A stretch of 64,000 nucleotides of DNA from an uncultured Bacteriovoracaceae bacterium. Lineage in GTDB: Bacteria > Bdellovibrionota > UBA1018. Below the pieces are notes generated by a model. The model ran no database searches, was not told the DNA's origin, and was given only the letters and a program-made list of their open reading frames with translations. Position numbers and translations under genes: made by a program. Location: contig CAZLYB010000013.1 in the NCBI GenBank assembly GCA_964563795.1, positions 3,107 through 67,106 of the forward strand, written 5' to 3'. Shown here in pieces: positions 11,424-51,650 of this stretch; position 1 is the stretch's first letter, and each line of letters begins with the position of its first letter.

Positions 11424-11433
11424 GAGTTCTTCT

Positions 11434-12435
11434 CTAAGCTTTCTTTTCTTCGCGGAGTCTTTTTTCCCAGTTCAACGCGCTTTCGCAGATCAATTTGAGG
11501 TCCGCGTAACGAGGTTCCCATCCCAGCAAATCCCGAATTTTCCTGTTATCAGCGATCAACTGGGCGGAATCGCCCGGACGGCGGGGCGCTTCCCGAACCG
11601 GAAATGAAACTCCGCTCACTTCTTGAACCGTTCGGATCACTTGCCGGACGCTAAATCCCTCGCCATAGCCGCAATTGAAAATCCCGGGATTCCCTCCCCG
11701 ATCGAGATAATTCAAAGCATCCAAATGGGCTCGAGCCAAATCTTCAACGTGAATGTAATCCCGAATCCCCGTCCCATCCGGGGTGGGATAATCAGTCCCG
11801 TAAATCTCCACGCGCGGCCGCAATCCGAGCGCTGCCTGGCAGGCGACTCGAATCAAATGAGTCGCGACCTCCCCCGACTGCCCCAATCTCCCGTCAAAAC
11901 TCGCTCCTGCCACGTTGAAATACCTCAAACTCAATCCCTTGAAATGACTTCCCTGGATGCTTTCGGTGACCGAGCGAAGCATCCATTCCGTCATGAGCTT
12001 TGAGGCGCCATAGGGATTGAGGGGCTGCACCGGGGCGGATTCAGGGATCAGAACCGACTGAGGATGCCCATACACCGCGGCGGTCGATGAAAAAACGAAC
12101 GAACGCACTTTTTTTGCCCGTGCGCACTCGGCGATCAAAGTTTGAGAGGCCACGGTGTTGTTCTTGAAATACTTCAAGGGATCAACGACCGACTCATCCA
12201 CCCGGATGGATCCGGCGAAGTGAATCACGCTTTCAATCTCATGGTCTTCCAGCGCCTGACGAACCAGGGCGGCATTCCCTACGTCACCCTCGATCCACTG
12301 CGTTCTCGGATCAATCGACGCGCGCCTCCCCGTGCTCAGGTCATCCATCACGAGCACGGAATAACCGGCATCCAAGAGCTGTCGGGAAGTATGGGAGCCA
12401 ATGTAGCCCGCGCCCCCGGTCACTAAAATCTTCAT
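11434..12435 (-). CDS. galE: UDP-glucose 4-epimerase
   Basis: N-terminal MKILVTGGAGYIGSHT, a YxxxK active-site region (YGASK) and a length of 333 aa. Confidence 0.85.
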   Translation of the reverse strand: MKILVTGGAGYIGSHTSRQLLDAGYSVLVMDDLSTGRRASIDPRTQWIEGDVGNAALVRQALEDHEIESVIHFAGSIRVDESVVDPLKYFKNNTVASQTLIAECARAKKVRSFVFSSTAAVYGHPQSVLIPESAPVQPLNPYGASKLMTEWMLRSVTESIQGSHFKGLSLRYFNVAGASFDGRLGQSGEVATHLIRVACQAALGLRPRVEIYGTDYPTPDGTGIRDYIHVEDLARAHLDALNYLDRGGNPGIFNCGYGEGFSVRQVIRTVQEVSGVSFPVREAPRRPGDSAQLIADNRKIRDLLGWEPRYADLKLICESALNWEKRLREEKKA

Positions 12436-23957: not shown

Positions 23958-24218
23958 CTAGCGATGTCGGTTTTTTTTGTGTTTTTTACCCTTTTTCTTA
24001 TGACTCGCCGTCTTACGATTGGTTTTCGTTTTCGCACGCTTTGATTTTTTGGAGTTCTTTTTTACGTGCTGAGACGAAGAGTGCTTTTTGCCGTGAATCC
24101 CTTTAGACTTCTTGGACTTAGCAAAAGCGTCTCCTCCGCTTGAAAGCAAAAAGAGCAGCGTGATGACGACGGAAAGGGTTTTAAGTGCCCGCTTTTTCAT
24201 ATTCGATCTGATCGGCAA
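23958..24218 (-). CDS. Small polycationic secreted protein (86 aa, Lys/His-rich)
   Basis: A signal peptide MKKRALKTLSVVITLLFLLSSGGDAFA is followed by about 55 aa that are more than 50% Lys, His or Arg. It lies 28 nt upstream of the PLC gene on the same strand. Confidence 0.4.
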   Translation of the reverse strand: MPIRSNMKKRALKTLSVVITLLFLLSSGGDAFAKSKKSKGIHGKKHSSSQHVKKNSKKSKRAKTKTNRKTASHKKKGKKHKKNRHR

Positions 24219-26175: not shown

Positions 26176-26250
26176 TGGAGTGTAGCTCAGCGGGAGAGCA
26201 TCCCCTTCACACGGGGAGGGTCGTAGGTTCAATCCCTATCACTCCAACCA
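26176..26250 (+). tRNA. tRNA-Val (anticodon CAC)
   Basis: TGGAGTGTAGCTCAGCGGGAGAGCATCCCCTTCACACGGGGAGGGTCGTAGGTTCAATCCCTATCACTCCAACCA folds as a cloverleaf with anticodon loop TTCACAC, T-loop TTCAATC and an encoded CCA. Confidence 0.85.
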
Positions 26251-26328
26251 TTTTAGTTTTAATTTCTTTTAAACAAGACACTCCGAAAAGAACCTTTTAT
26301 CGTTAAAGGACAAAAAGGAGAATCAGCG

Positions 26329-26817
26329 ATGGGGCAACTCTTGGATGTCAATTTCATCAAACCCTTTATCGAAGGGGCGATCCATACTCTTAAAGTTCAA
26401 TGCCAAGTGGAGGCTAAAGTAGGAAAACCCTACATGAAAAGCCAGGAGCCTGGGGATTCCCCAAAAATGGATATTGCCGGCATCATCGGCATCACCAGCG
26501 ATTCCTTCAAGGGTTCCATTTCACTTTGCTTTCCTGAGAGAACTTTTTTGGCGATCATGGGCCGAATGTTGGGCGAGACTTACACCGCCATCACGAAAGA
26601 CGTGGAGGACGGCGCCGGAGAGCTCACGAACATCATCTTTGGCGCGGCAAAAAGGGTGCTCAACGAAAAGGGGCACACCATCCAGAAAGCGCTTCCCAGC
26701 GTAGTATGCGGATCCGGGTTGAAAGTCCGTCACTTGACGACGACGCCCACAGTCGTGCTACCGTTTGAAACGGAGCTGGGCGCTTTTGCCATTGAAGTCG
26801 GGATCGAACCCATTTGA
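26329..26817 (+). CDS. CheX-like chemotaxis phosphatase (CheC/CheX family)
   Basis: 162 aa. N-terminal LLDVNFIKPFIEGAIHTL and the CheX family's conserved GELTNIIFG motif. An AAGGAG Shine-Dalgarno precedes the start. Confidence 0.6.
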   Translation: MGQLLDVNFIKPFIEGAIHTLKVQCQVEAKVGKPYMKSQEPGDSPKMDIAGIIGITSDSFKGSISLCFPERTFLAIMGRMLGETYTAITKDVEDGAGELTNIIFGAAKRVLNEKGHTIQKALPSVVCGSGLKVRHLTTTPTVVLPFETELGAFAIEVGIEPI

Positions 26818-26834
26818 ACGACGGAGAAAAACGC

Positions 26835-27227
26835 ATGTTCGACTTGAAAACGCGAATTCTGATCATCGATGACATGAGCACAATGCGAAAGCTGGTGACC
26901 AAAGCCTGCAAAGAGATCGGCTTCACCGAATTTCTTGAAGCTTCGGATGGGGCGCTGGGATGGGAAGCGCTGAACTCAGCGAGTCCCCCGGTCGGCCTCA
27001 TCATTTCGGATTGGAACATGCCCAATTGCACGGGGCTCGACCTCTTGAAGCGGGTTCGCGGGGATCAACGCTTCAAGCAACTGCCTTTTTTGCTGGTAAC
27101 CGCCGAAGCGGAGAAAAGCCAAATCCTCGAAGCGCTCCAAGCTTCAGTGAGCGGATATGTCGTGAAACCCTTTACCGCGGAGACACTCAAGCTCCAGCTT
27201 GAGCAGGCGCATAAAAAGCTCTCTTGA
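26835..27227 (+). CDS. CheY-like single-domain response regulator
   Basis: RILIIDD, the phospho-acceptor context LIISDWNMP and YVVKPF. The start is moved from a TTG to the ATG at 26835, where GGAGA sits 7 nt upstream. Confidence 0.8.
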   Translation: MFDLKTRILIIDDMSTMRKLVTKACKEIGFTEFLEASDGALGWEALNSASPPVGLIISDWNMPNCTGLDLLKRVRGDQRFKQLPFLLVTAEAEKSQILEALQASVSGYVVKPFTAETLKLQLEQAHKKLS

Positions 27228-28624
27228 TGCCAGGAAATCTCCCCGCTCAATCCGTCCCCTGCCTCGCCATCGCTCTCAGCAAGGAACTTGAGGCCCAAAT
27301 TCAAAATTCCTTCCCTGAACTCAAATTAGCTCTTTCCCCCTACGATCTCGAAAAGTTGATGGAGCCCATCCAGCCGCCGCCCAAGCTCATTCTTTGCGGC
27401 TCCCTCCCTCAGAGCGGCACCATCGCGGAGCTCGCCCAGCTCTTGCGCATGAATTACCAAAACACGCCGATCTACCTGATCTTGGAATCAGGAGCTCACA
27501 TCGACCGTAAGGAGTTGATGAAGAACGGGTTGAACGATGTGTTTTTTTTCCCTTTCGACCAGAATCTCTTCACTCAATCCCTGAAGGAATGGCTGCTGAG
27601 CAACTTAGACGGCCAAAAAGCGTATCGTTCGGTGAAGCTCGTGGATTTGCAGCCTAACACCACACTGCAGTTCGATACGTTTCTTTACATGCCGGCGAAC
27701 CACAAGCACATCAAGTATTCCTCGGCCGGCGACCCCATCGAAACCGAGCGCCTCAACCGACTCAAGCAGAACCCGACCTCGAGCATTCACGTGGCCTCCG
27801 AAGACCTCCAGAAAGTTTACGAATACACCGCGGCGACGCTGAAGAAGCTGGGATCTAGCGCGTCGATGGGTGAAACGGAGCGATCCCAAAAACTCCAAAC
27901 CGCCGTCAGGGACCTCATCTCCGATCTTTTCAGCGACGCGGTCACGGGGATGGAGGGAGGAAAAGGCGTGATCGAGGACTGTCAGAACATCGTCCGATCC
28001 TACATCTCCTCCTCCTCCAAGGATGGCTGGTATGAAAAGATCCTCACCCTGAGCGGGAGCAGTGCCGGAAACTACTCACATTCGGCCAACGTCGCGACTT
28101 ACGCGGCGCTCTTCGCGGTGGGATTGGGGAACGAGCACGTCGAGGAAATCGGGATCGCAGGCCTGCTCCATGACATCGGGCTCGCTAAAATCCCCGTGGA
28201 GCTGCAGTCGAAACCCATCTCAGAGATGACCCAGCTCGAAAAACATTCCTATGAAAAGCACCCCGAATATTCGCTTGAAATCATCCGAGAAAGAAAGCTC
28301 ATCATCCCGGAACTTTCCCAAAAAATCATCCTTCAGCATCATGAATGCTTCAATGGTTCGGGGTTCCCCAAAGGCTTGCGTGATAAGCGCTTGCTGGTGG
28401 AGTCCCAAATCCTTGCGTTCGCTGATCGATTCGACGAATTATTGGCGGTGACTCCAGGAAAAAAAGCGAAAACGCCCTTTGAAGCCGCTCAAGAACTCTC
28501 GCTCTTGATGATCAATGACCCCAGCAAGGCGTTCATCGAGCCAGAGCTGATGAAAAAGCTTCTGGCGCTCTTTCCCGCCTCGCAGCCTCCCTCTCCCAGC
28601 GGAGCCGACGGGAGCGCTGCCTAA
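27227..28624 (+). CDS. HD-GYP domain protein with an N-terminal receiver-like domain; degenerate GYP motif
   Basis: The HD motif LLHDIGL is intact. HHECFNGSGFPKGL has NGSGFP in place of the canonical DGSGYP. The N-terminal ~150 aa fold like a receiver domain but have no clear acceptor Asp. Confidence 0.75.
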   Translation: MPGNLPAQSVPCLAIALSKELEAQIQNSFPELKLALSPYDLEKLMEPIQPPPKLILCGSLPQSGTIAELAQLLRMNYQNTPIYLILESGAHIDRKELMKNGLNDVFFFPFDQNLFTQSLKEWLLSNLDGQKAYRSVKLVDLQPNTTLQFDTFLYMPANHKHIKYSSAGDPIETERLNRLKQNPTSSIHVASEDLQKVYEYTAATLKKLGSSASMGETERSQKLQTAVRDLISDLFSDAVTGMEGGKGVIEDCQNIVRSYISSSSKDGWYEKILTLSGSSAGNYSHSANVATYAALFAVGLGNEHVEEIGIAGLLHDIGLAKIPVELQSKPISEMTQLEKHSYEKHPEYSLEIIRERKLIIPELSQKIILQHHECFNGSGFPKGLRDKRLLVESQILAFADRFDELLAVTPGKKAKTPFEAAQELSLLMINDPSKAFIEPELMKKLLALFPASQPPSPSGADGSAA

Positions 28625-30202: not shown

Positions 30203-30934
30203 CTAGCGAATCCCGCTGGATTTCGCAAGTCTTTCGTAGGCCTCCAGCATTTTGACTCGGACCTCGTCTAAGAGCCGCTCTTCCTCTCCCAGCGAATACC
30301 CCCGTGTTGAAAAGGGCGGCAAAACTTCCAAAGGAAGAATCCCAGGTCGAATCCGCTTTTCTTTCCAAGAAAACCAAGCCTTCAATGGAGGGGCGACCAA
30401 AATCAAAAGGGGCGCCCCCGTCTCCAACGCCAAGCGAAAGGCGCCTTTTTTGAAAGGCAAAAGCGGTTCACCGGATCGATTGCGGGTTCCCTCCGGGAAA
30501 ATCAAAACGGATTGCCGGTGATCGCGAATTTTTTTCGCCGCCCGTTCCAGGCTTTGAGCGGCCCTGACTCGATTTTTTCGATCGACGAGCACGTTGCCTG
30601 AACCCACGAAAAGAAAACCAAAGACGGGCAGCCAAATGAGCTCTTTTTTTCCGATGATGAAAGTCCGCTCCGGGTAAATCGCGCCGAGCAGAACCGAATC
30701 CCAGTTGCTCTGATGATTGGCCACCACCACGAAAGGCCCGGGAGCGTTCAGGTGCTCCAGCCCCTGAACTTGAAGCTTCAGCCCGAGGATTCTGAGCGCC
30801 ACCCGACCGTAAGCCCGGGCCGTGGTTTGCATGACCCAAGGATCTTTCCAGCGGAACACGCAGAGCAACAGCCCCACGGAGCAGACGATCAAAAGCCAGG
30901 TTCCGGATAAAAGCAGGCGGATCCAAAAGAGCAT
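30203..30934 (-). CDS. plsC: 1-acyl-sn-glycerol-3-phosphate acyltransferase
   Basis: VVANHQSNWDS (H-x4-D) and FPEGTRNRSG motifs. The start is set at the ATG overlapping the upstream stop (TAATG). Confidence 0.8.
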   Translation of the reverse strand: MLFWIRLLLSGTWLLIVCSVGLLLCVFRWKDPWVMQTTARAYGRVALRILGLKLQVQGLEHLNAPGPFVVVANHQSNWDSVLLGAIYPERTFIIGKKELIWLPVFGFLFVGSGNVLVDRKNRVRAAQSLERAAKKIRDHRQSVLIFPEGTRNRSGEPLLPFKKGAFRLALETGAPLLILVAPPLKAWFSWKEKRIRPGILPLEVLPPFSTRGYSLGEEERLLDEVRVKMLEAYERLAKSSGIR

Positions 30935-31860
30935 TATTTCAACCGGGTGGAGATCCACGCCTGAAGCACGCGGCTCGAGACGGGGCGCCGGATCTTTTTG
31001 GAAAACTGGGCGCTCAAGCGGCAAAGCGCATCCAAATTCACGCCGGTCTCGAGCCCCAAGCCATTCAGAAGATACGCCAAATCCTCGGTCGCCAAATTCC
31101 CGCTGGCGCCAGGAGCGAAGGGGCATCCGCCTAATCCTCCTACCGAACTATCGAAGACTCGCACGCCCAGATCCAGCGCTCGCAAAGCATTCGCGAGAGC
31201 CGTTCCCCGCGTATCGTGAAAATGGGCTGCGATATGGGAGGGAGATTGAGCGAGCCTCATCGCCGGATGAAACACGTCGCTCACTTGGTTGGGGGTAGCC
31301 ACTCCGATCGTATCCCCGATCGAAACTTGATCGACTTCAAGCCGCAAAAGACTTTCCAAAACGCGGAGCGTTTCTGAGGGCGCGATTTTGCCCTCAAAAG
31401 GACAGGCAAAAGCCGTCGAAAGATAAGCGCGAAACCGGATTGAATCCCCCTGGGAGGATTTCCCCTCCCGAATGAGGGACTGGAATTCCTGCATGGATTC
31501 CTGAAAAGTCATCCCAATGTTTTTTTTCAGGAAAGTAGCGCTTACGGCCGTGCCGAATGCGATATGACGGCATCCCGCTTGAAGCGCGCGCTTCAGCCCC
31601 GTTCGGTTAAAAACCAATCCCCAGGCCTTGGCGGAGTGGGGAATGGCTTTTTTTGTTCTCTTGAAGACCGCTTCGCTCTCCGCCATCTGAGGGACCCGAT
31701 CCGGGCGCACGAACGCGCCGAGCTCGACTTCCCGGAGCCCCGTCTTGAATAAATCCCGCACCAGCCGCGTCTTTTCAGCGAGCGGAACTTTGCGCTTTTC
31801 ATTTTGGAGCCCGTCCCGCGGCCCCACTTCAAAAATAAAAGCCCGCTCGCGCGAGTTCAC
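30934..31860 (-). CDS. Hydroxymethylglutaryl-CoA lyase
   Basis: N-terminal EVGPRDGLQNE motif, a TIM-barrel HMGL family fold and a length of 308 aa. Confidence 0.85.
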   Translation of the reverse strand: MNSRERAFIFEVGPRDGLQNEKRKVPLAEKTRLVRDLFKTGLREVELGAFVRPDRVPQMAESEAVFKRTKKAIPHSAKAWGLVFNRTGLKRALQAGCRHIAFGTAVSATFLKKNIGMTFQESMQEFQSLIREGKSSQGDSIRFRAYLSTAFACPFEGKIAPSETLRVLESLLRLEVDQVSIGDTIGVATPNQVSDVFHPAMRLAQSPSHIAAHFHDTRGTALANALRALDLGVRVFDSSVGGLGGCPFAPGASGNLATEDLAYLLNGLGLETGVNLDALCRLSAQFSKKIRRPVSSRVLQAWISTRLK

Positions 31861-32348
31861 GATTTTTCCTTTTTGGAGGGTTCGTCCGCCTGAAAATCCA
31901 GAAGCAGCTCGCCGGGGCTCAGGCTCTGCCCCTCTTGAACGCGGATTGCGGTCACCTTTCCGGCGACAGGGGCGGTGATGGCGAATTCCATCTTCATGGC
32001 TTCCACTCGAATCAAGACCTCATTGGATTGAACGCTTTGCCCAGCCTGAACGAGAATTTTCCTGACTTTCCCCGGAAACTGCGCCCGAAAATCCAAATCC
32101 GCATTCGAGCCCGGGCCCCCTGAAGCGGCGGACGGATCCTCGGAGCTCTCCAGTACCCCCTGCCAAAGCTTGCCATTCCAAAGCAAAGTGGTTTTGCCTT
32201 GAGCGCCTTTCAGCAGGAAAAATCTTCGCCGGACCCCGGAAGCATCCTCGAGGATCTGCCAACCTCCTGGCCTAGTCTGTGAAACAAGAGGAGAGCTCGG
32301 ACGCTCCAATGGCCAGCTTTTCCCGGAGACTTTCCACTGGCGCTTCAT
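31857..32348 (-). CDS. Biotin carboxyl carrier protein (separate BCCP/BT-like subunit of an acyl-CoA carboxylase)
   Basis: Biotinylation motif EAMKME near the C-terminus. The ATG overlaps the biotin carboxylase stop (ATGA). Confidence 0.75.
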   Translation of the reverse strand: MKRQWKVSGKSWPLERPSSPLVSQTRPGGWQILEDASGVRRRFFLLKGAQGKTTLLWNGKLWQGVLESSEDPSAASGGPGSNADLDFRAQFPGKVRKILVQAGQSVQSNEVLIRVEAMKMEFAITAPVAGKVTAIRVQEGQSLSPGELLLDFQADEPSKKEKS

Positions 32349-33787
32349 GGTGAAACCCAGGGGGAAGGAAAGTTTTGCGGCGAACCCTGAGCACCGGAAC
32401 CCCCCAGGGACGAAGGCGATGAATGAGCGAGAAGCTCAAGAGACACCGCATCGAACTCGGGCTGAAACGAAGCGAATGCCTCCTCCAAAAATGACGTGGA
32501 CACGCGCCCCGCCTGCACTTGAGGATGTTCGGAGATCGCCAAAAGATAAGGTTGATTCGTGCCTACTCCAGCGATCACGGTCTCCCTCAAAGCCTCTTGA
32601 ACACGGGCGAGCGCGGACGCGCGATCCGATCCGTAAACGCTGAGCTTGGCGAGCATCGCATCGTACTGAGTGTGGATCGTCTGCCCCACTTCGATGCCGC
32701 TATCAACTCGGATTCCCGCGCCCAATGGCCATCGCAAAGCTTCCACTTTTCCGCTCCAGGGCATGAACCCTCGCGCGGGATCTTCCGCGTACAGCCTCAC
32801 CTCAATGGAGTGGCCACGAACGCTGGGCGGCTCAGTCCAAGGGGAGTTTCCATTCAGGCCCAATTCAATCTGGGCTCTCACCAGATCGGTCCCAGTTACC
32901 CACTCGGTCACAGGGTGCTCCACTTGAAGGCGGGTATTCATCTCGAGAAAATAAAAGCCGCCCGCATCATCCACGAGAAACTCCACCGTGCCGGCGCTGC
33001 GGTACTTCACGGCTCGCAGGAGCGAGAGAGCGGCTTCGTGCAAGGCGTTCCGCGTGGTTTCGCTGATCTGCGCGGCGGGCGCCTCTTCCCAAACTTTTTG
33101 ATGGCGCCTTTGGAGGGAGCACTCGCGCTCATGAAGGTGGACGCCGCCCCCCTTTCCATCCCCGAAAACCTGGACTTCGACGTGACGGGGTTGCAACAGG
33201 AGTTTTTCCAGGAAAAGAGTGCCGTCGCCAAAAGCCGCCTGAGCCTCGGCGCTCGCGCTTTCGGCGGCATCCTCAAGCTCTTTGAGCTCGAGCACCTTGC
33301 GCATTCCTTTTCCTCCCCCTCCGGCTGAGGCTTTCAGAAGCAGGGGAAATCCCACTTTCAGCGCGGCGGCCTTGAGATTTTGCCCCGCTTCAACGATCGC
33401 CCAGGGCAGCGTCGGCACGGCAGCTTGCTCGGCCGCGCGCTTAGCGGCGATCTTCTCCCCCAAAAGCGACATGGAGTCAGCGCGAGGGCCTAGGAACGTG
33501 AGTCCCGCCGCTTCTACCGCGGCCGCGAAAGCGGGGCGCTCCGACAAAAAGCCATACCCCGGGTGCACCAGCTTCGCTCCCAGTCGTTTGGCCTGCGCGA
33601 TGATCGCGACTGAATCCAAGTAGGCGGGCACTTCGCAGATTTCATCCGCATAGGTGAGGTGGCGAGCCTCTTCATCACCGGGAGCCAAAATCCCCACGGT
33701 TTTAATCCCCATTTCGCGGCAGGTTTGAAAAACGCGGCAGGCGATCTCCGCGCGATTGGCGACGAGCAGCTTGGTCGGCCGGTTCAC
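32345..33787 (-). CDS. Biotin carboxylase subunit (MCC/PCC alpha, biotin-carboxylase domain only)
   Basis: LLVANRAEIACRV at the N-terminus and an ATP-grasp core. The tracked ORF has no Met before this segment. A GTG at 33785-33787 overlaps the hydratase stop (GTGA) and gives MNRPTKLLVANR. Confidence 0.8.
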   Translation of the reverse strand: MNRPTKLLVANRAEIACRVFQTCREMGIKTVGILAPGDEEARHLTYADEICEVPAYLDSVAIIAQAKRLGAKLVHPGYGFLSERPAFAAAVEAAGLTFLGPRADSMSLLGEKIAAKRAAEQAAVPTLPWAIVEAGQNLKAAALKVGFPLLLKASAGGGGKGMRKVLELKELEDAAESASAEAQAAFGDGTLFLEKLLLQPRHVEVQVFGDGKGGGVHLHERECSLQRRHQKVWEEAPAAQISETTRNALHEAALSLLRAVKYRSAGTVEFLVDDAGGFYFLEMNTRLQVEHPVTEWVTGTDLVRAQIELGLNGNSPWTEPPSVRGHSIEVRLYAEDPARGFMPWSGKVEALRWPLGAGIRVDSGIEVGQTIHTQYDAMLAKLSVYGSDRASALARVQEALRETVIAGVGTNQPYLLAISEHPQVQAGRVSTSFLEEAFASFQPEFDAVSLELLAHSSPSSLGGSGAQGSPQNFPSPWVSP

Positions 33788-34596
33788 TTTGAAAGCCACG
33801 AGGGTTTGCGCTTTTCGAGGAAAGCGCGCACGCCCTCTTGGCCCTCCGGCGAAACACGAAGATCCGCGAGGATCTTGGCGACGTACTCCAGGGGATCTGG
33901 AAACTGCGCCCGACGCTCCGGCCAGGATAAATCCAAGACCAGGCGCTTGGCCGCGGCGACCGCTTGAGGGCCGCACTGCAAAAGCGCTTCTAATTTGAGT
34001 TCAAACGATTTTTGCAGCTCTTCGGGACGCTCCACGACTTCATGAATGAGGCCGATCGCGAGCGCCCGCTCCGCGCTGAAACGCTCCGCGCTGATAAAAA
34101 GCGCGCGCGAATGAGAGGCGCCGATCTTCGCGACGACGAAAGGGCCGATGCACGCCGGGATGATCCCCAAACGCACTTCGCTCAAACTGAACTGAGTCTC
34201 TCGACTGGCCACCACCACGTCGCAAACGCTGACCAAGCCGACTCCTCCCCCTAAAACCGCGCCATGAACCAAGCCGATCAAGGGCCGGGGGCATTCATTG
34301 ATGATCGAAAAAAGATGAGCGAGCTCCCGGGTATCTTGAAGGTTCTGCTCTCGGCTGAGCTCCACCGATTCACGCATCCAATTGAGATCTCCCCCTGCGC
34401 AAAAAGACGCTCCCGCTCCGCAAAGCACCGTGACTTTGACTTGAGGATCCCTCAGCCGCTCGGAAAAAACCTCGGTGAGTTCTTGGATCATTCGACCATT
34501 GAAGGCGTTGCGCACCTGAGGCCGATTCAGCTCCACCCGCAGGACGCCTGCGCCTGACAGAGTGACTTGAAGAGTCTGATCCGTTTTTTGAGCCAT
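33784..34596 (-). CDS. Enoyl-CoA hydratase/isomerase (methylglutaconyl-CoA hydratase-like)
   Basis: Crotonase-fold motifs LNRPQVRNAF and CGAGASFCAGGDL. The start is moved to MAQKT (34596). Confidence 0.75.
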   Translation of the reverse strand: MAQKTDQTLQVTLSGAGVLRVELNRPQVRNAFNGRMIQELTEVFSERLRDPQVKVTVLCGAGASFCAGGDLNWMRESVELSREQNLQDTRELAHLFSIINECPRPLIGLVHGAVLGGGVGLVSVCDVVVASRETQFSLSEVRLGIIPACIGPFVVAKIGASHSRALFISAERFSAERALAIGLIHEVVERPEELQKSFELKLEALLQCGPQAVAAAKRLVLDLSWPERRAQFPDPLEYVAKILADLRVSPEGQEGVRAFLEKRKPSWLSK

Positions 34597-34649
34597 GCAC
34601 CGTTGAAGGTAACGTCCGCCCCGATCGCTTGCAACTGAGAAAAAATTTT

Positions 34650-34666
34650 GATCTCCTAGGGAGATC
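34650..34666 (+). promoter_or_regulatory. 17-bp perfect palindrome GATCTCCTAGGGAGATC abutting the carboxyltransferase ATG
   Basis: Seen directly. It covers the GGGAGA Shine-Dalgarno and lies in the divergent intergenic region between the hydratase and carboxyltransferase genes. Confidence 0.35.
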
Positions 34667-36253
34667 ATGGCTTTGATCAAATCCCAGATTTCAACGAACT
34701 CCGATGAATTTAAATCCAACGCCGCCCATCACCGAAAGCTCGTCGCTGAATTGAAGGAGCGGGTGGAAAAAAACCGCCTCGGCGGCGGAACGGAAGCGCG
34801 CGCTAAACACCAGTCCCGGAATAAACTTTTAGCCCGAGATCGGATTGAAGCGTTATTGGATCCTGGCTCGCATTTTCTCGAGCTCTCGTCCTTAGCCGCA
34901 TGGGACATGTATGAAGGAAGCGCCCCTGGGGCTGGGATCGTGACGGGCATTGGGTCCGTCCATGGACGCGAAGTGATGGTGGTCGCGAATGACGCCACGG
35001 TGAAAGGGGGGACCTACTTCCCCATGACCGTTAAAAAACACCTCCGCGCCCAGGAGATTGCCCTAGAAAATCGGCTCCCCTGCGTCTATCTCGTGGATTC
35101 GGGGGGAGCCTACCTCCCCCTCCAGAGCGAAGTTTTTCCCGATCGAGACCACTTCGGCCGAATCTTCTACAATCAAGCCCGAATGTCCTCGCAGGGAATC
35201 GCTCAAATCGCCGTCGTCCTGGGTTCCTGTACCGCGGGTGGGGCCTACGTCCCAGCGATGTCCGATGAGACCATCATCGTGCGCAATCAAGGCACCATTT
35301 TTCTGGGAGGACCTCCTTTGGTCCAGGCCGCCACCGGGGAGATCGTGACGGCGGAGGAATTGGGCGGAGGCGATGTCCATTGCCGAACTTCAGGGGTCGC
35401 CGATCACTTGGCTGAAAACGACGAGCATGCGCTCTCGCTCGCCCGCGGAATTTTGGGGCGACTCAACCGAGAAGCTCCCCTTTCGATCGATCGGATTGCC
35501 CCCGAAGATCCGATCTACCCCGCAGAAGAGCTCTACGGCGTCATCCCGCCCGATTACCGAAAGCCATTTGATTCGCGAGAGCTCATCGCCCGGCTCGTCG
35601 ATGGATCCCGCTTTGACGAATTCAAGGCGCTGTATGGATCCACCCTGGTTTGCGGATTCGCGCGGCTCTGGGGGATTCCCGTCGGCATCCTCGCCAACAA
35701 CGGCATCCTGCTCAGCGAAAGTTCGCTCAAAGGCGCCCATTTCATCGAACTCTGCTCTCAACGGAGGATCCCCCTGTTCTTCCTGCAGAACATCACGGGA
35801 TTCATGGTGGGAAAAAAATATGAGTCCGGCGGAATCGCGAAAGACGGGGCAAAACTCGTTACCGCGGTTTCCGGAGCGCCAGTTCCCAAGTTTACCCTGA
35901 TCTTCGGGGGCAGCTTCGGGGCTGGAAACTACGGAATGTGCGGCCGAGCCTATCAGCCCCGTTTCTTGTGGATGTGGCCGGGGGCGAGGATCTCCGTGAT
36001 GGGTGGCGAACAGGCGGCTTCGGTGCTCACTCAAGTGAAGGGCAACCAACTTTCATCCCAGGAGATCGAGAAAATCCAAAAGCCCATTCTCGAGAAATAC
36101 CAGCACGAGGGCAGCGCTTATTTCAGCACCGCGCGGCTCTGGGACGACGGGATCATCGACCCTGCGGAGACGCGCCGAACGCTCTGTCTCGCGCTCTGCG
36201 CTTCATTGAACGCCCCGCTCCCGGAGTCCCGCTTCGGCGTTTTCAGGATGTGA
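34667..36253 (+). CDS. Acyl-CoA carboxylase carboxyltransferase subunit (methylcrotonyl-CoA carboxylase beta-like)
   Basis: N-terminal ...[35 protein letters not shown] and two crotonase-like CT domains over 528 aa. Confidence 0.8.
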
Positions 36254-37686: not shown

Positions 37687-39369
37687 TTAAAAAGACAGGC
37701 TGACCCCGGCTGGCCGGACGATCTCCAGGAGATTTTGAAAGGCCGTGAACACTTGCGAGGCGACTTTCCTGCCCGCGGAGCTCTCGATCTTCTTCACTTC
37801 GCCGCTGTTCGTGTAGCTCATGGTGATCGTGCCTAAGTTCTCGTACTTGATCTGGGTCGGTTTGGAATTCTCGTCGTACTTGAAATCCATGCGGCGCTTC
37901 GCATTGTCGACCATGGTCTTGATGAGGCCATTGGGGAAGTAAAGCAACCGGACCGCTTTTTTCTCGGAATTTTCAGCGAAAATCATGTTCCCGCTGCCGT
38001 CATACTGGAAGTTCGACCACTGGGTCTGCCTCTTCGAGGCGCGATCCTGCCGCGTGACTCTCTTCACCTTGCCCACCTTGGCATCGTAGGAAAGCTCGGT
38101 GAGCTCAGTCGGGGTGGTCTTGCGGGTCAAATGGCCCTTCGCATCGTAGTCAAACGTGGTTTCTTCGCCTTCTTTCTTGATCGAAACCGGCAGGCCATGA
38201 CTTTCATTGTAAGTGGTCTCGGTCTTTTCCCCGTCGAGCGTGGCGATCAGCTTGTACTGCCACTCCTCCCCGTCCGCGCGCCTTTTGTTGAAGTACTCGT
38301 ACTGGGCGGAAGAGAGCTTGGCTCCCTCCTTGCTCTTCACGTTGACGGCGACGGTGTAATGATTCTTGTCGGAAGAATCGTACTGATAGGAATACTCGGT
38401 CAAGGTCCCATCCCGCTCCTTCACGGTTTTCACGTTCTCGTTCTTATCCACACCGTAGTAGGAGATTTGCAGGGTCGTTTTGTCCGCGTAGCCGATCTCA
38501 TTCATGTTGCGATTCTTGTCGTATTTGTACGAATAGGCGTTTCCGTCAACGTCCTTGCTGTACGTCAGCTCCCCCACGGCCGAATATTGGAAGGAAGCCA
38601 CTTTTTTGTTCTCTCCCTCGATCCTCTCAAGCAAACCCTGCTTATTGTAGGAAAGGAACATCTTGCGGTTGAAGTTATCCACGATCTTGGCGATACGACC
38701 GTCCTTGGAGTAAGTCAGGTCGATCGCATTCTTGTTCCGATCGGAGACTTTGACCAGTTTTCCCTGCTCATTGAAGCGCTCGACTTTGCCGCTCTCAAAA
38801 ACGCGGATGTACCCGCCCGCGACTTTGGTGATGTACTGGGGGCTGAACCGGATGGATTGGAGCTGAACCCCATTGGCCAAGGCGCGCGGCTTCAGGCGCC
38901 CGCTTTGCACGAGTTTTTCCCATTCCCTGCCCCTGAACGAAGCATCCGCTTTCAACTGAACCTTGTATTTCTTGAATTGGTCCGCCGAACCGCTGATGAG
39001 GTTCGCCGCCCTGGCCCCGTTGGCAATCTCCTCCACGGCGCGATCCAAATCCGCCTGGTTGAAATTTCCGGGGCTGAATCGATTCTCGGCGCCGCCGCCG
39101 TACTCATGGACGGTGACGCTCCCATCGGCCGCCACTTTCAGGAAAACCTCGAATTCATTGCCCCATCCCCACCCGAAGATGCCCTTGAAGGAGGTGGAGG
39201 CCTTGGCGTTGTACACCCGTTCGATCTTGGGGTCGAACCCGCCTGGATACACAATATCCGTATAACCTATGAAAAAATTTCCGTTCTTCAAGCTCACGTT
39301 CGCGCGCGCGGCTTGCGCATATAAACCGATCGTCCCCATCGTCAAAAGAATGACGGCTTTCGTTCTCAT
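37687..39369 (-). CDS. YD/RHS-repeat-containing secreted protein
   Basis: A signal peptide, then about 12 degenerate YD repeats (…LTYSKDGRI…, …YDKNRN…, …YDAKGHL…, …YDGSGNM…). There is no obvious C-terminal toxin domain, and the protein ends with Phe. Confidence 0.5.
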   Translation of the reverse strand: MRTKAVILLTMGTIGLYAQAARANVSLKNGNFFIGYTDIVYPGGFDPKIERVYNAKASTSFKGIFGWGWGNEFEVFLKVAADGSVTVHEYGGGAENRFSPGNFNQADLDRAVEEIANGARAANLISGSADQFKKYKVQLKADASFRGREWEKLVQSGRLKPRALANGVQLQSIRFSPQYITKVAGGYIRVFESGKVERFNEQGKLVKVSDRNKNAIDLTYSKDGRIAKIVDNFNRKMFLSYNKQGLLERIEGENKKVASFQYSAVGELTYSKDVDGNAYSYKYDKNRNMNEIGYADKTTLQISYYGVDKNENVKTVKERDGTLTEYSYQYDSSDKNHYTVAVNVKSKEGAKLSSAQYEYFNKRRADGEEWQYKLIATLDGEKTETTYNESHGLPVSIKKEGEETTFDYDAKGHLTRKTTPTELTELSYDAKVGKVKRVTRQDRASKRQTQWSNFQYDGSGNMIFAENSEKKAVRLLYFPNGLIKTMVDNAKRRMDFKYDENSKPTQIKYENLGTITMSYTNSGEVKKIESSAGRKVASQVFTAFQNLLEIVRPAGVSLSF

Positions 39370-39401
39370 GATTGCTCCCCTCACATGGCCTTCCTATAAG
39401 A

Positions 39402-40274: not shown

Positions 40275-42452
40275 TCACCCCGCCTTCGCCGTGAAAAGGC
40301 TTCGCGAGATCTTCATTCCCTTGGCTTCCATCTCTTCCACGAACTTCGGAACGAAACCGGTTGGGATCACGCGCCCGATGACTTTTCGCTTTTTATCGAG
40401 GCCTTCCTGCTTGAATACGAAAATATCTTGAAGGCTCACCACCTCGCCCTGAATCCCCACGACCTCGGTGATGTGGGTGATTTTTCGGCTTCCGTCCGAG
40501 AGGCGGCTTTGCTGAATGATGATCCCCACCGCTGAAGCGATGTTCTCGCGGATCGCTTTGGCCGGTAGGCCCAACCCCGCCATCATCACGAGCGTCTCGA
40601 GACGCGCGATGGCTTCGCGGGGATTGTTCGCGTGAAGCGTGGTGAGCGATCCCGAGTGACCGGTGTTCATCGCTTGCAACATATCGAGGGCTTCCTGGCC
40701 GCGGCACTCCCCAACCACGATTCGGTCGGGACGCATTCTCAGGCAGCTTTTCACCAAATCCCGGATGCTCACTTCGCCCTCGCCCTCGATGTTCTTGGGC
40801 CGCGACTCAAGGCGCACCACATGCTCTTGCCCAAGCTGAAGCTCGGCTGAATCCTCAACCGTGATGATTCGCTCAGTGGCGGGGATGAAATTTGAAAGCA
40901 CGTTGAGCAAGGTCGTTTTCCCGGAGCCCGTTCCTCCGGAGACCAGGACATTCAACTTCGCCTCGACGCAGCATCTCAGGAAATCCGCGATCTCGGGAGT
41001 CATCGAGCCAAAGGAGATCAGATCCTTGGCTTCCATTCTTTTTTTGGGGAACTTTCGGATCGTGATGGTCGGGCCCCGGAGCGACAAGGGGGGGATGATG
41101 ATGTGAACACGCGATCCATCGCGCAAACGCGCGTCGACGTACGGCACTTTTTCATCAACGCGGCGCCCGAGCGGCGTCACGATTCGCTCGATCACCGTCA
41201 TCATCTGCTGCTCGCTGGAGAAGGTGACTTTCGAAAGCTGGGGTTTTCCGAGACGCTCGATGTAGATTTGATCCCGGGAATTGACCATGATTTCAGTCAC
41301 GCTCTCATCCGCAAGCAGATCCTCGAGCGGCCCGAGTCCCAGCGCCTCATCGAGGACTTCCTTCACCATCTGAGATTTGAGCTCTCGGCTATTCAGGAGG
41401 GACTCGGTGTCCTCGGCGCCAAGGACGTCGAGGATCGCTTTCTGCGTTTTCTCGCGCAAAACCGCCCTCTGCTTGGGATCGTTCGTGTCAGTATTGGTCC
41501 GCTTGAGGTCCATCTGCTCGACCAAGGCCTTGTGAACCCTCAGCTTCATCGCCGTCCAAGCGTCCAGCGGCGCGGACATGCTGCGATGGATCGGGTTGCC
41601 GTCGGATCGGGCTTGGCCAGATCCATCGGGGCTGGAGCTCGCGACTGCGGCCTGCGATTGCATCTTGGCGGCCACCCCGGTCGGCTTCTTGAGCTTGGCC
41701 AAACTCTCGAGCAGATTGGATTGCTGCATTTTTCGGACGATATCGTGATAAGCGCGCGCGACGGCGGTGTTCGGCGCGGCGATGCAAAGCGGAATGCTCT
41801 TCGCGAGCGAGCTTTCGCAAGTGGGGCCATCCTCGGGAATGGCGGCAAAAATCGACTTGCCCAAGTTTTTTTGAATCAGCTGGGGATTGATGATCGAGTT
41901 TTGGGAATATCGGTTCATGACCACTTGAACCATCTCGGGGGGGAAAAGCAGCTCCTGAATTTTTCCCAGCAGGCGCTTCGTCTGATTAATCACGATGATG
42001 TCGGCGGAGGTCACCACGTAGATGGCGCTCGCGAACTCGAATGCCTTAAGAGCCCATGGATCCGTCCCGCTCCCGCAATCCACGACGGTCCAGCTGAAGA
42101 CGTTGGTGACGGACTTCAAGAATCGTCCGAGCCCGTCCAAATCCAGGTCGCGCGCCACGATCGCGTCGCGGGGGGCGCCGATGTAACTGTAACCCGCCTG
42201 CGCGTTCACCATGAAGGGGGCGAGCGTCTTGGGATCCACCGGCCCCGGCGGCATCTTGCTCACGTCAATGATGCTCTTGGGGGGATTTTGATTCAAAATG
42301 ACGTTTTGATCGCCGAGGCTATTAAGGTCGAGATCAACGATCAATGGTCTTTGTTTAAATTCTTGGAGATAAGCGATGGCCAGGTTCGCGGCGAACACGC
42401 TTTTTCCGACCCCGCCTTTTCCGCCGACCACTGCGATGATATGCCCAGGCAT
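40275..42452 (-). CDS. Fusion of a CpaE/TadZ-like ParA/MinD ATPase domain and a CpaF/TadA secretion ATPase
   Basis: The N-terminus carries the deviant Walker [15 protein letters not shown] of ParA/MinD/CpaE. The C-terminal half carries the VirB11/CpaF core [15 protein letters not shown]…RLESRP…VGECRG with His- and Asp-boxes. It is one uninterrupted 725-aa ORF. Confidence 0.8.
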
Positions 42453-42469
42453 CGGTTACTTGCTCCCCA

Positions 42470-44206
42470 TCACTTCATCTTGACCCGGAAATTCCGCTTG
42501 AGGTCTTCCGTCCCATCCGAGGCGTTCTCGATGATTTGCGGAGTGATGAAAATCACGAATTGGGATTTCGACTTCCTGTAGTTCTTGGACCGCAGCAGCG
42601 TGAAGAGCGGATCGGTCCCTTCGCTGAACGACCCGGGGCTCGGATCATCCTTATTGAAGTCCGTGCCCACCGTGGTCGCGCTCACTCCGGCGATCGCGGC
42701 GCTTTCCGCTGATTTGACGTAAAGCTTGGTATCCACCCGGTGAGTCGCGGTGATGGGTTGCGTCCCTGACGCCGGAGTCCGACCCACGAGGTTGGTTTGG
42801 TTCACCTTGATATCGACTTGGATGTCCTCGCTTTGCCCCAGGATCGTGGGCGTCACGCCGAGCTCCAGCCCCACGTCCTGCTTGCCCGCCGAGACCTGCC
42901 CATTGGCTCCCTGGATCAAGAAAGGGAATTGGGTTCCCTCAAACAGGCTCGCGGCTTGGCCGCTTCTGACGACCAAGGTCCCGGTTTTCAAAATCCTGGC
43001 ATAGCCCGCGGCCTGGGCGCTTTGAAGCTTCGGCAATAAGCTTGAGATGGTCGCGCTGAACGAAACTCCCCCGCTTCCGGTTGTGGTGGTCGTTGCTCCG
43101 GCCGTCTGGCCGTTGCTGAAAGTGACCTCGGGACCGCTGGAGGTGAACCCCGGTTGCCATTTAAAGCCAAAGAGCCGGTTGTAATCCTTGGAAAGCTCCA
43201 CGAAGTAAGCCGTGATTCGAACCAGCTTATCCTGTTTTTTCGGGGGAGGCGCGTTCACGATGATGAAAGTCTGCACCAGATTCCGCCCGGGAAGCCGCGT
43301 CGCCTGGCCCTCCGCCTCGAACCGGCCCAAGGGATTGGCGGGTTTGATTTCAGGGAGATAGAGCAGCGCGATGTTCTTCGCACGGTTGGCTTGATCAATG
43401 GTATCGACGGTCCCTTCCAAGAAGATCAGTCCATTGACCACTCTCGTCTTCACGCCGGGGGCGAACACATTGATGTCTTCTTGAATTTTTTTGGCCAGGA
43501 ATTGAAGCGCCAGCGGCGAGAGCGTCGTGAGATTCATGATGAAATCCCCGTAGGCCTTGTCCCCCACGACGGTCAGAAGGCGAGCGTAGTCATTGGGGAC
43601 GAGGATCTCCCCTTCCAAAATGACTTTAGGCCCCACGATGCGGATGTCCAAACCTTCCACGTCGCGAAGCAAAGAGCGTACTTCACCAGCCACTCGAAGC
43701 AGATTGGAACCCGTGATCCGGGCGTTGAAAATCAGGCGAATCGTCCCATCCGCGTCACGTACCGTGATGTTTGTGTCCCCCGGTTTCAAGGGCTTGAAAA
43801 CGATCTGGCGCTTTTGACCGATTTTTACGAGCGTAGTCGCGAGCAGGGTGGGATTTCCGATGGTGATCCCGCTGACTTCGGGACTCACGTCAAAATTGAG
43901 ATCGACGGCTTTGTCTTCCCCCGAAGTCAGCAGCAGCCTCCTGCGATCCGCATTCGCCTCCGACTCATCATTGGTCAATCGGGATCGCCCCACGGATCTC
44001 GCACGGCGGGAGAATCGGGGCAGGGATTGAACAGGAACGGATTTAACTTCGGGCAAAGGCTGCGACTGCGGCATGGGAGCGGGCGGGACTTGAGGCGCGG
44101 GCTCCGTCACTAAGGACCCCCCGGATGGCGGATCCTCGGCGTGGAGCTCGCCGCCCGGCGCGGCGATCAGCAGCAAGAAGATCGGGAGAAGATTCCATCG
44201 TTTCAT
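42470..44206 (-). CDS. cpaC: Tad secretin CpaC/RcpA
   Basis: A signal peptide and the secretin C-domain …FVIFITPQII… . The protein is 578 aa. Confidence 0.8.
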   Translation of the reverse strand: MKRWNLLPIFLLLIAAPGGELHAEDPPSGGSLVTEPAPQVPPAPMPQSQPLPEVKSVPVQSLPRFSRRARSVGRSRLTNDESEANADRRRLLLTSGEDKAVDLNFDVSPEVSGITIGNPTLLATTLVKIGQKRQIVFKPLKPGDTNITVRDADGTIRLIFNARITGSNLLRVAGEVRSLLRDVEGLDIRIVGPKVILEGEILVPNDYARLLTVVGDKAYGDFIMNLTTLSPLALQFLAKKIQEDINVFAPGVKTRVVNGLIFLEGTVDTIDQANRAKNIALLYLPEIKPANPLGRFEAEGQATRLPGRNLVQTFIIVNAPPPKKQDKLVRITAYFVELSKDYNRLFGFKWQPGFTSSGPEVTFSNGQTAGATTTTTGSGGVSFSATISSLLPKLQSAQAAGYARILKTGTLVVRSGQAASLFEGTQFPFLIQGANGQVSAGKQDVGLELGVTPTILGQSEDIQVDIKVNQTNLVGRTPASGTQPITATHRVDTKLYVKSAESAAIAGVSATTVGTDFNKDDPSPGSFSEGTDPLFTLLRSKNYRKSKSQFVIFITPQIIENASDGTEDLKRNFRVKMK

Positions 44207-44209
44207 TCT

Positions 44210-45049: not shown

Positions 45050-45617
45050 ATTGGAGCGGGCCTCCGCAAATCTGGAACTGGCTTGCCTCATCGAGGCGGT
45101 AAAGCGCGGTTGCTTTGGAATCCGGGCCGTAAGGGGGACCTGAGAGCGGCAAGATGGCGGCATCCCCGGAACCGTTTCGAACGACGTTCGCCTGCGTGCA
45201 CAGGGTCACCGTGTTCCTCACGCGCACGAGCGCGCGTTCCGCTGGCTCTTGCCCGGTCTCATCCTGCGCGGGCGCGCGCCTTCGAGTGACGTTCTTGGTG
45301 GGGGCTTTCGGGATGTACCGTTCGCCGGGCTCACTGGGGCTGGCGTTCTCCGCAACGCCGATCACCATCTGATTGTAACTTTTTGCAGTCAATTCGGCCT
45401 CCCGCAGGGAGAGATAGGGATACACGGGACTATTGTAGGTGAGCCAGAGCGCCTGGGCGCGGGCGTACTGCTGATTCACGATCCCCACTTGAATCGCCGT
45501 ATTCACGCGGATGAGAATCAAGGCGAGCGTGAGCATCATCGGAAGCATCAAAAGAAATTCGATGACGCTTTGGCCCGATTGATCCAAGATCAATGCTCCA
45601 GACGGGTTAACACCCAT
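45042..45617 (-). CDS. TadE-like pseudopilin
   Basis: The N-terminal prepilin-like segment QSGQSVIEFLLMLPMMLTLAL contains the G/xxxxEF motif. Confidence 0.55.
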   Translation of the reverse strand: MGVNPSGALILDQSGQSVIEFLLMLPMMLTLALILIRVNTAIQVGIVNQQYARAQALWLTYNSPVYPYLSLREAELTAKSYNQMVIGVAENASPSEPGERYIPKAPTKNVTRRRAPAQDETGQEPAERALVRVRNTVTLCTQANVVRNGSGDAAILPLSGPPYGPDSKATALYRLDEASQFQICGGPLQYE

Positions 45618-51648: not shown

Positions 51649-51650
51649 CT

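Follow-up and report, generated by a model that had tools for sequence, protein, structure and literature searches.

Chemotaxis and cyclic di-GMP (c-di-GMP) signaling are already known to influence one another. In Pseudomonas aeruginosa, the phosphodiesterase Pch (DipA) depends on CheA and on the phosphorylation state of CheA; the authors of that study postulated a receiver adaptor, itself unidentified (PMC3861689). In Shewanella, phosphorylated CheY3 (CheY3~P) has diguanylate cyclases as binding partners, as well as an effector of c-di-GMP (MxdA) (PMC7666153). In Vibrio cholerae, PlzC, a c-di-GMP-family protein, directly inhibits CheX (PMC12799141). In the Wsp system, a CheA-like kinase signals to a protein with receiver (REC) and GGDEF domains. 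HD-GYP proteins are the least understood c-di-GMP enzymes, and Bd1817, their structurally founding member, is still without an assigned role. In RpfG, the GYP loop serves to bind a partner, a GGDEF protein. Here, we describe a three-gene cheX-cheY-HD-GYP module found in 64,000 nucleotides (nt) of DNA from an uncultured Bacteriovoracaceae bacterium (Bdellovibrionota; GenBank assembly GCA_964563795.1, contig CAZLYB010000013.1, positions 3,107 to 67,106 of the forward strand), a stretch that we refer to as the window. The module is real, conserved, and uncharacterized. Its domains are familiar, and it probably joins the control of swimming to c-di-GMP-type signaling.

A 2022 review places c-di-GMP-modulating chemosensory systems in the alternative cellular function (ACF) and type IV pili (TFP) classes only. 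Among the HD-GYP architectures in a 2021 census are REC-HD-GYP, DUF3391-HD-GYP, and GAF-HD-GYP; the three-part arrangement described below is not among them, and the terms “chemotaxis” and “CheX” do not occur. Our full-text searches of the literature found no description of a cheX-cheY-HD-GYP module. An interpretation made earlier from the letters of the DNA alone (the sequence-only reading) had drawn attention to the trio, and we note below where our results bear on it.

A conserved gene module linked to chemotaxis

The module consists of three genes on the forward strand: cheX (26329–26817; 162 amino acids; Pfam CheX, E = 6.8e-20), cheY (26835–27227; 130 amino acids; Pfam Response_reg, E = 9.4e-23), and a gene encoding an HD-GYP protein (27227–28624; Pfam HD_5, E = 8e-25, and HD, E = 2.2e-16). 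The third protein begins with a receiver-like domain whose phosphorylation site has been replaced, referred to here as the pseudo-receiver. A search with the whole protein returned ~38 full-length homologues with 31–58% identity. Their sources, where informative, are all Bdellovibrionota (Bdellovibrionales, Pseudobdellovibrionaceae, Bacteriovoracaceae, and Oligoflexia), and all family members found come from Bdellovibrionota-type metagenome assemblies. Searching with the N-terminal 279 residues, i.e., without the HD-GYP domain, returned at least 366 representatives of 50%-identity clusters at E ≤ 1e-3, and 249 at E ≤ 1e-10, nearly all being 430–470 amino acids long and colinear with the window protein. 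The family is large, uniform, and unnamed.

We compared gene neighborhoods across 21 loci with usable flanks (the window, L001–L013, L015, L081, L083, and L164–L167); the locus counts rest on the matches listed rather than on an exhaustive genome survey. A cheY gene flanks the HD-GYP gene in 16 of the 21 loci, usually at a distance of 0–5 nt or overlapping it, and these flanking CheY orthologues are 54–76% identical. cheX is adjacent or nearby in 14 loci, either upstream or downstream of the HD-GYP gene, and 11 loci have cheA, cheW, methyl-accepting chemotaxis protein (MCP), cheB, or cheR genes within 6 kb. One locus (L164) has a single-strand operon with the order cheA(REC)-cheW-PAS protein-cheB-cheR-cheY-cheX-HDGYP; another (L165) has the order cheA-cheW-cheR-cheB-cheY-HDGYP-cheX. 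In the two nearest relatives of the window protein (58% and 54% identity), a cheA-cheW-MCP group is divergent from cheX-cheY-HDGYP. The sequence-only reading had proposed a link to a chemotaxis-like phosphorelay; the frequency of cheY, and the several relatives in which the genes end a complete cheA-cheW-cheB-cheR operon, bear this out.

The association with cheY is confined to proteins that carry the pseudo-receiver. As a control, we examined 18 metagenomic relatives among the matches listed that have the N-terminal domain and the HD-GYP domain but not the pseudo-receiver. None has cheY or cheX nearby, versus cheY in 16 of 21 loci of the family (0/18; Fisher exact p = 1e-6). The gene context supports the view that the trio is a functional unit tied to the chemotaxis phosphorelay, with a strong, translationally coupled cheY linkage that is specific to pseudo-receiver carriers and lies within che operons. 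Most likely, the window trio is one copy, separated from the other che genes, of a three-gene accessory unit that is conserved in chemotaxis operons of the Bdellovibrionota. No natural fusion to CheY (i.e., a “Rosetta-stone” protein) occurs among 150 representatives, all of which are ≤470 amino acids long. No true Bd1817 orthologue was found among the family loci examined, the matches all being ~25% identical.

Four loci of one subclade have a neighboring gene for a small PilZ protein with a Lys-rich tail, in which the c-di-GMP-binding motifs RxxxR and DxSxxG are both intact (L001, 377–700 (−); L002, 5104–5439 (−); L015, 4932–5444 (−); L166, 5404–5874 (−)). It is transcribed divergently from cheY-HDGYP or from the HD-GYP gene alone. 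In L015 and L166, the PilZ gene is beside a 2-oxoglutarate-Fe(II) oxygenase gene, and in L002 and L015, PilZ is present and cheX is absent. Two loci contain further HD-GYP genes: in L164, the stretch 10577–12056 (+) encodes a stand-alone receiver followed by a 323-amino-acid HD-GYP protein, and in L165, a gene for a 459-amino-acid HD-GYP paralogue (8315–9694 (−)) is convergent on that for an unusually long, 281-amino-acid CheX. These arrangements suggest that a receiver gene next to an HD-GYP gene is a repeated combination in the phylum.

Gene starts and spacing

The cheX ATG is preceded, at a distance of 8 nt, by the Shine-Dalgarno sequence AAGGAG (26315–26320). The start codon of cheY is most likely the ATG at 26835 rather than a TTG at 26814 that would overlap cheX, because the exact 130-amino-acid product is on record and the orthologues all start with MF(D/N). 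With this start, cheX and cheY do not overlap but are separated by 17 nt that hold a GGAG ribosome-binding site. By contrast, the cheY stop codon and the ATG of the HD-GYP gene overlap as TGATG. From this ATG (27227), the HD-GYP product is 465 amino acids long and 100% identical to a recorded 465-amino-acid protein (P0001).

The sequence-only reading had placed tRNA-Val and the CheX, CheY, and HD-GYP genes in this order, and every element is found where it was reported, with small corrections. The third protein had been given as 466 amino acids, and cheX had been described as starting 79 nt after the tRNA, where we count a spacer of 78 nt. All three genes had been called translationally coupled; cheY and the HD-GYP gene have the TGATG overlap, and cheX and cheY are 17 nt apart.

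Domain architecture of the HD-GYP protein

The third protein combines a phospho-dead receiver fold, a Bd1817-like N-terminal domain, a linker, and an HD-GYP domain. The pseudo-receiver spans residues ~10–128 (27254–27610). In an AlphaFold2 model built on 36 family sequences (mean predicted local distance difference test score, pLDDT, 78.7), this region adopts a (βα)5 fold, from β1-α1 to β5-α5, with pLDDT ~88–92. Comparison by hhalign of the first 131 columns of the family alignment (residues 8–126) with a CheY profile gave an end-to-end match with 82% probability (E = 1e-5), and Foldseek matched the modeled domain to the PhoB receiver (1zes; TM 0.72), Spo0F, and the N-terminal domain of CpaE. 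All five positions of the phosphorylation site are replaced: the domain is without the phospho-acceptor Asp, the acidic pair, the Thr, and the Lys, and an Asp at the D57-equivalent position is found in 0 of 160 family members. Instead, the domain has its own conserved residues; E69, Q72, K100, N101, G102, and P110 are family-specific and 89–99% conserved (n = 160). The sequence-only reading had described a pseudo-receiver N-terminus, and the profile match, the predicted fold, the receiver matches, and the replaced phosphorylation site all agree with it.

The pseudo-receiver is followed by a small beta-rich domain of the Bd1817 type (residues 133–190; 27623–27796; identified with phmmer and Foldseek), which goes by the name DUF3391 in Galperin's scheme. 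The Pfam model DUF3391 (PF11871) does not match the window protein and matches 1 of 36 family members weakly (E = 0.026); Bd1817 itself is reported to be far from the DUF3391 consensus. A helical linker (residues 191–277; 27797–28057) is modeled with pLDDT 51–64, and its counterpart has been described for Bd1817 (PMC3188283). The HD-GYP domain spans residues 285–446 (28073–28564; Pfam HD_5 and HD). Pfam detects only the HD part in all 36 of 36 family members, and does not detect the pseudo-receiver.

Structural and sequence searches point to the same relative. With the full model as query against the Protein Data Bank (PDB), Foldseek placed Bd1817 at the top (E = 2.8e-13; 325 columns, spanning the whole Bd1817 chain; TM 0.66), followed by PmGH, PA4781, and DvhD. 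In phmmer searches, Bd1817 was likewise the best solved relative (E = 3.2e-13), with residues 134–415 of the query aligned to residues 23–299 of the chain, i.e., starting from the Bd1817 N-terminal domain.

The HD-GYP active site and GYP loop

We mapped the residues of the window protein onto PmGH through phmmer alignments and determined their conservation among 36 close members and 160 family members. The motif LLHDIGL (28163–28183) contains the intact HD dyad (28169–28174) and ends in a Leu (28181–28183) that replaces the lysine of HDxGK. HHE (28337–28345) precedes the loop NGSGFP (28352–28369). The intact HD dyad, LLHDIGL, and HHE are as the sequence-only reading had described them. All of the binuclear metal ligands are kept (H286, H316, D317, H346, H372, H373, and D401, corresponding to PmGH H189, H221, D222, H250, H276, H277, and D305), as is D404, the equivalent of PmGH D308. 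The metal ligands are 94–100% conserved in the 36 close members and 81–97% conserved in the 160. An alignment with characterized HD-GYP proteins had been proposed as a check; run against Bd1817, PmGH, PA4781, and V-cGAP3, it found all seven ligands present in the window protein.

Several other positions that matter in PmGH are changed. The HDxGK lysine position is Leu in the window protein (HDIGL), and is L in 87, M in 25, I in 16, K in 10, and E in 8 of the 160 family members; a hydrophobic residue occupies it in 82% of family members and at every cheY-linked locus examined. The RxY[K/R] motif (PmGH R314 and K317) is replaced by T410-P-G-K413, with the Arg being unconserved in the family, and KPG (PmGH K235–G237) is replaced by K330-P-I-S. 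The position of PmGH E185, the third metal ligand, is occupied by Gly282, and the equivalent of D183 is also missing. The E185 position varies in a loosely aligned loop of the 36 members (D in 12, G in 9, S in 6, others in the rest); the loop before H286, which includes the D183/E185 region, aligns poorly, and residues 279–282 are modeled with pLDDT <50. In PmGH, K225A abolishes activity, and D183A and metal-ligand mutations lower it; the G284A, Y285A, P286A, R314A, and K317A mutations do not substantially lower activity. Some HD-GYP proteins without E185 are still active.

The GYP loop was the focus of the sequence-only reading, which regarded NGSGFP as a degenerate motif. The letters are as given, and Tyr is indeed replaced by Phe, but the Asn is not a change, because the published HD-GYP consensus, HHExh(D/N)GxGYP, allows either Asp or Asn at this position. 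In the window loop (HHECFNGSGFP), the HHE, N, both G residues, and P agree with the consensus; E374, G378, G380, and P382 are ~96–99% conserved (n = 160) and are among the most conserved positions of the protein. Tyr and Phe alternate at the GYP position between close orthologues (26 Tyr and 9 Phe of 36; 89 Tyr and 68 Phe of 160), which argues that the Tyr hydroxyl is not under selection. On this pattern, the Phe is neutral variation within the family rather than the key to function. The altered loop had been treated as an informative deviation; Y285A PmGH is still active, and the deviations relevant to catalysis and specificity, which that reading had not mentioned, are those at the lysine, RxYK, KPG, and E185/D183 positions.

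By these residues, the HD-GYP domain is intermediate between active HD-GYP proteins and Bd1817. The metal center that has been kept, together with the catalytic-lysine and substrate-recognition residues that have been lost, argues for a non-canonical activity or for a role in sensing or partner binding. The sequence-only reading had similarly proposed changed specificity or a non-catalytic role; the domain is indeed non-canonical, but the proposal had been argued from the loop, which is uninformative. It had also raised cyclic GMP-AMP (cGAMP) as a possible substrate. HD-GYP proteins that hydrolyze cGAMP exist, including Bd2325 from the same phylum, but residue mapping did not find the cGAMP signature RxxQ/N in the window protein, and nothing in it is specific to cGAMP.

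CheX and CheY

The other two proteins appear to be ordinary members of their families, in agreement with their earlier description as a CheX-type phosphatase and a stand-alone CheY. CheX scores 71.4 bits against the Pfam CheX model (cut-off 27), and its active-site motif, D94-x3-E98-x2-N101-x21-P, is intact at 26608–26697 (DGAGELTN...P, with a 21-residue spacer). The E and N of the motif are invariant across 12 syntenic CheX proteins, and V. cholerae CheX requires the Asn of its ExxN. The matches among solved structures are 3iic, 3h2d, 3hm4, and 6vpw (E = 1e-26 to 1e-29). The score against the NCBIfam Thermotogales equivalog is below the cut-off, as expected for a different lineage. CheX is predicted to be an ordinary CheY-P phosphatase of the CheC/CheX/FliY family with an intact ExxN site.

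CheY matches NCBIfam PRK10610 with E = 2e-37 and 128.2 bits, under the 189-bit cut-off. Its best 50 matches among solved structures are all CheY proteins, with Salmonella/Escherichia coli CheY at the top (3.9e-34). Alignment of 14 syntenic CheY proteins showed that the equivalents of D12, D13, the phospho-acceptor Asp, T87, Y106, and K109 are all kept. The phospho-acceptor is D59 (codon 27009–27011), within SDWNMP; the Thr is within VTAE, and the Tyr and Lys are within GYVVKPF. CheY is predicted to be a stand-alone, phosphorylatable receiver of the E. coli-like flagellar type.

Possible mechanisms

The mechanism that we favor, to which we give an even chance, is that phosphorylated CheY (CheY~P) binds the pseudo-receiver and thereby controls a non-canonical output of the HD-GYP domain, with CheX resetting the signal. 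A CheA encoded elsewhere in the genome would phosphorylate CheY. CheY~P, alongside any action at the flagellar switch, would then dock in trans on the pseudo-receiver, making the system a response regulator split over two polypeptides. The candidate docking site is the E69/Q72/K100/N101 patch, on the α3/α4 side of the domain and by the “x-P” remnant of β5. Docking would flip the HD-GYP domain between states, and the output might be either the local turnover of a nucleotide, be it c-di-GMP or a relative of it, or altered partner binding via the exposed, near-invariant GYP loop, as described for RpfG. CheX would shorten the lifetime of CheY~P, resetting both outputs. We favor c-di-GMP as the currency because PilZ genes neighbor the pair in four loci. 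By analogy, there are precedents for each step in other chemistries (Pch-CheA, CheY3, and PlzC-CheX). A more specific version, in which the split response regulator gives chemotaxis a second, non-motor output through a di-metal HD-GYP domain that is no longer a canonical c-di-GMP phosphodiesterase, and that hydrolyzes or senses another nucleotide or signals via its GYP loop, seems unlikely to hold in all its parts.

Several observations weigh against gating of the HD-GYP domain by CheY~P. The sequence does not show which way the signal runs, and CheY or CheX could be targets of the HD-GYP protein rather than the reverse. Gene adjacency by itself could mean co-expression only. The CheA kinase is assumed, because cheA, cheW, and MCP genes are absent from the 64-kb window. 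Bd1817 has shown neither phosphodiesterase activity nor c-di-GMP binding in vitro. Lastly, four to five family loci are without an adjacent cheY (L003, L006, L007, and L166; cheY is displaced in L012). Among these orphans, L003, L006, and L007 have neither cheY nor cheX. L003 has lost the Q72/K100/N101 part of the pseudo-receiver patch; L006 and L007 have a Lys at the HDxGK position and an Asn at an Asp ligand, as in Bd1817. This residue pattern is consistent with docking but, with too few loci to weigh, is a weak hint.

If information flows the other way, the HD-GYP protein would be an input to chemotaxis: it would sense c-di-GMP, another nucleotide, or redox state, oxygen, or nitric oxide, through its metal center or N-terminal domain, and would modulate the phosphatase activity of CheX, or sequester CheY through the pseudo-receiver, and thereby tune CheY~P at the motor. 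Such wiring, the main alternative, is possible but rather doubtful. Direct inhibition of CheX by PlzC in V. cholerae is a precedent, cheX co-occurs in 14 of 21 loci, the combination of a kept metal center with loss of the lysine and RxYK suits a sensor better than a fast hydrolase, and Bd1817 is catalytically silent. However, some loci do without cheX (L002, L015, and L167), with cheY being the constant partner, and the lost guanine-binding residues also weigh against tight sensing of c-di-GMP. The protein might instead be an autonomous, ordinary c-di-GMP phosphodiesterase similar to binuclear HD-GYP proteins such as PA4781, with a pseudo-receiver that only dimerizes and a che linkage that reflects co-expression with motility genes. 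Conservation of the seven binuclear ligands, HHE, and the D305 and D308 equivalents would fit such an enzyme; so would the activity of the GYP-loop and R314/K317 alanine mutants of PmGH and of HD-GYP proteins that do without E185, and the PilZ neighbors imply that c-di-GMP is the relevant ligand. Nonetheless, we consider this quite improbable: K225A kills PmGH, the HDxGK lysine position holds a hydrophobic residue in 82% of family members and at every cheY-linked locus examined, and both KPG and RxYK are gone. Moreover, the cheY linkage is restricted to pseudo-receiver carriers (16/21 vs 0/18), and overlap of stop and start codons is frequent in coupling.

The idea of the sequence-only reading, that the NGSGFP loop itself redirects the enzyme to a different cyclic dinucleotide (for example, 3'3'-cGAMP) or turns it into a binding-only protein, is the least probable of these possibilities, and we regard it as very unlikely. 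The Tyr285 of PmGH forms a hydrogen bond with a phosphate oxygen of c-di-GMP, which a Phe cannot do, and Bd2325 shows that HD-GYP proteins of this phylum can hydrolyze cGAMP. Against this, the Asn lies inside the published consensus, orthologues alternate between Tyr and Phe with no sign of selection on the hydroxyl, Y285A retains activity, and the RxxQ/N determinant is absent.

Surroundings of the module in the window

The gene upstream of the module encodes tRNA-Val (anticodon CAC; 26176–26250 (+); ARAGORN, and Rfam RF00005 with 63.7 bits), separated from cheX by the 78-nt spacer (26251–26328). The sequence-only reading had made this adjacency its headline, but the neighbor is not conserved: there is no tRNA near any of 14 related loci (0/14). 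A role for tRNA-Val as a functional or integration landmark was considered and rejected, given these loci and a GC content of the trio (52–54%) like that of the window (55.5%), with no compositional anomaly. The tRNA is an incidental upstream neighbor and lies outside the module. A consensus scan around the trio detected no promoter, and it predicted a terminator neither within the spacer between tRNA-Val and cheX nor at the operon's 3' end; three terminator-like sites elsewhere in the trio region are fewer than the mean for shuffled sequence. An Rfam E-value scan of the same region, including the spacer, matched only the tRNA and no riboswitch.

Pfam scans place the trio among housekeeping genes, detached from other che genes. 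Searches with tblastn, using queries from relatives, found no match to cheA, cheW, MCP, PAS-kinase, or OprB in the 64-kb window, and Pfam scans of 37 window open reading frames (ORFs) for further che or motility genes found only a FliG_C fragment. This 156-amino-acid ORF (2245–2715 (−)) consists of the FliG C-terminal domain alone (Pfam FliG_C, E = 6.2e-12), adjoins genes for an RDD-family membrane protein and tRNA-Pro, and is the sole flagellar gene in the window; it may represent a FliG_C paralogue that stands alone.

Other regions of the window include a Tad/Flp-like pilus cluster (40275–45163 (−) and 48281–53285 (−)), which encodes a 725-amino-acid protein in which a P-loop domain resembling ParA/MinD/CpaE is fused to a CpaF-type T2SSE ATPase, along with a secretin, RcpC/CpaB, and a pair of FHA/YscD-like proteins, of which one carries TPR repeats. 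Directly upstream of this cluster is a gene for a protein with RHS repeats and DUF6531 (37687–39384 (−)), possibly of the polymorphic-toxin type. A putative 86-amino-acid ORF with a TTG start (23958–24218 (−)) begins with a stretch resembling a signal peptide and has a basic tail that is extremely rich in Lys, Ser, and His. The housekeeping genes among which the trio sits include those of ordinary metabolism: leucine/propionate-type catabolic genes (30934–36253 and 56640–61825) encode a 3-hydroxy-3-methylglutaryl-CoA lyase-like protein, two sets of biotin carboxylase and carboxyltransferase, and methylmalonyl-CoA mutase.

Significance and comparison with known systems

Gene context supplies a testable set of partners for the family, i.e., CheY, CheX, the che operon, and sometimes PilZ, and this turns the question of what a Bd1817-like HD-GYP protein does into a defined experiment. 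If the module works as we propose, it would be a degradative, trans-activated HD-GYP counterpart to the Wsp, Pch-CheA, CheY3-diguanylate cyclase, and PlzC-CheX couplings. If it is a split regulator, it would provide the first function for the Bd1817-like “inactive” HD-GYP proteins. The setting is that of predatory or Bdellovibrio-like bacteria, where decisions about motility are central.

The third protein is related to both Bd1817 and RpfG, and probably works in a similar way, but is a clean member of neither group. Bd1817 (Bdellovibrio bacteriovorus; PDB 3TM8/3TMB) is from the same phylum, and its N-terminal domain, linker, and HD-GYP domain are colinear with those of the window protein. In both proteins, the loop starts with N-G-x-G, the lysine of HDxGK is missing, and RxYK lacks its consensus Arg. 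However, the two are only 21–25% identical, and the window protein has an extra N-terminal pseudo-receiver of 130 amino acids. HHE and the Asp ligand are intact in the window protein, whereas Bd1817 has HEE and N265, and the window protein has a Phe at the GYP position where Bd1817 has a deletion. The window family is also linked to cheY and cheX, unlike the 18 short Bd1817-type loci among the matches listed. RpfG-family proteins (REC-HD-GYP) similarly have a receiver fold N-terminal to the HD-GYP domain, and RpfG is under the control of a His-Asp phosphorelay. The RpfG receiver is phosphorylatable, whereas the window receiver has all five phosphorylation positions replaced; the window protein has an additional N-terminal domain and linker, and the phosphorylatable receiver is a separate, co-translated CheY.

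The window protein shares its fold, the binuclear ligands, and the D308 equivalent with PmGH (4MCW), PA4781 (4R8Z), V-cGAP3 (5Z7C), and DvhD (9RBZ). It differs from the proven phosphodiesterases in that E185/D183 are gone, K225 is Leu, KPG is KPIS, R314-x-Y-K317 is TPGK, and Tyr285 is Phe. The window CheX shares a fold family and the motif D/S-x3-E-x2-N-x(21-22)-P with CheX proteins from V. cholerae, Desulfovibrio (3HM4), Borrelia (3HZH), and Thermotoga (1XKO), and matches the proteobacterial group more strongly (E = 1e-26 to 1e-29) than the Thermotoga and Borrelia proteins (E = 1e-5 to 1e-7). The likeness to Pch-CheA, CheY3, PlzC-CheX, and Wsp is that parts of a chemosensory phosphorelay act on, or are acted on by, c-di-GMP proteins. 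In those systems, the partners are EAL, GGDEF, or PilZ proteins that are either unlinked or are themselves the phosphorylated response regulator. In the window module, by contrast, a dead-receiver HD-GYP protein is hard-wired beside a flagellar-type cheY and cheX, and in relatives beside a che operon.

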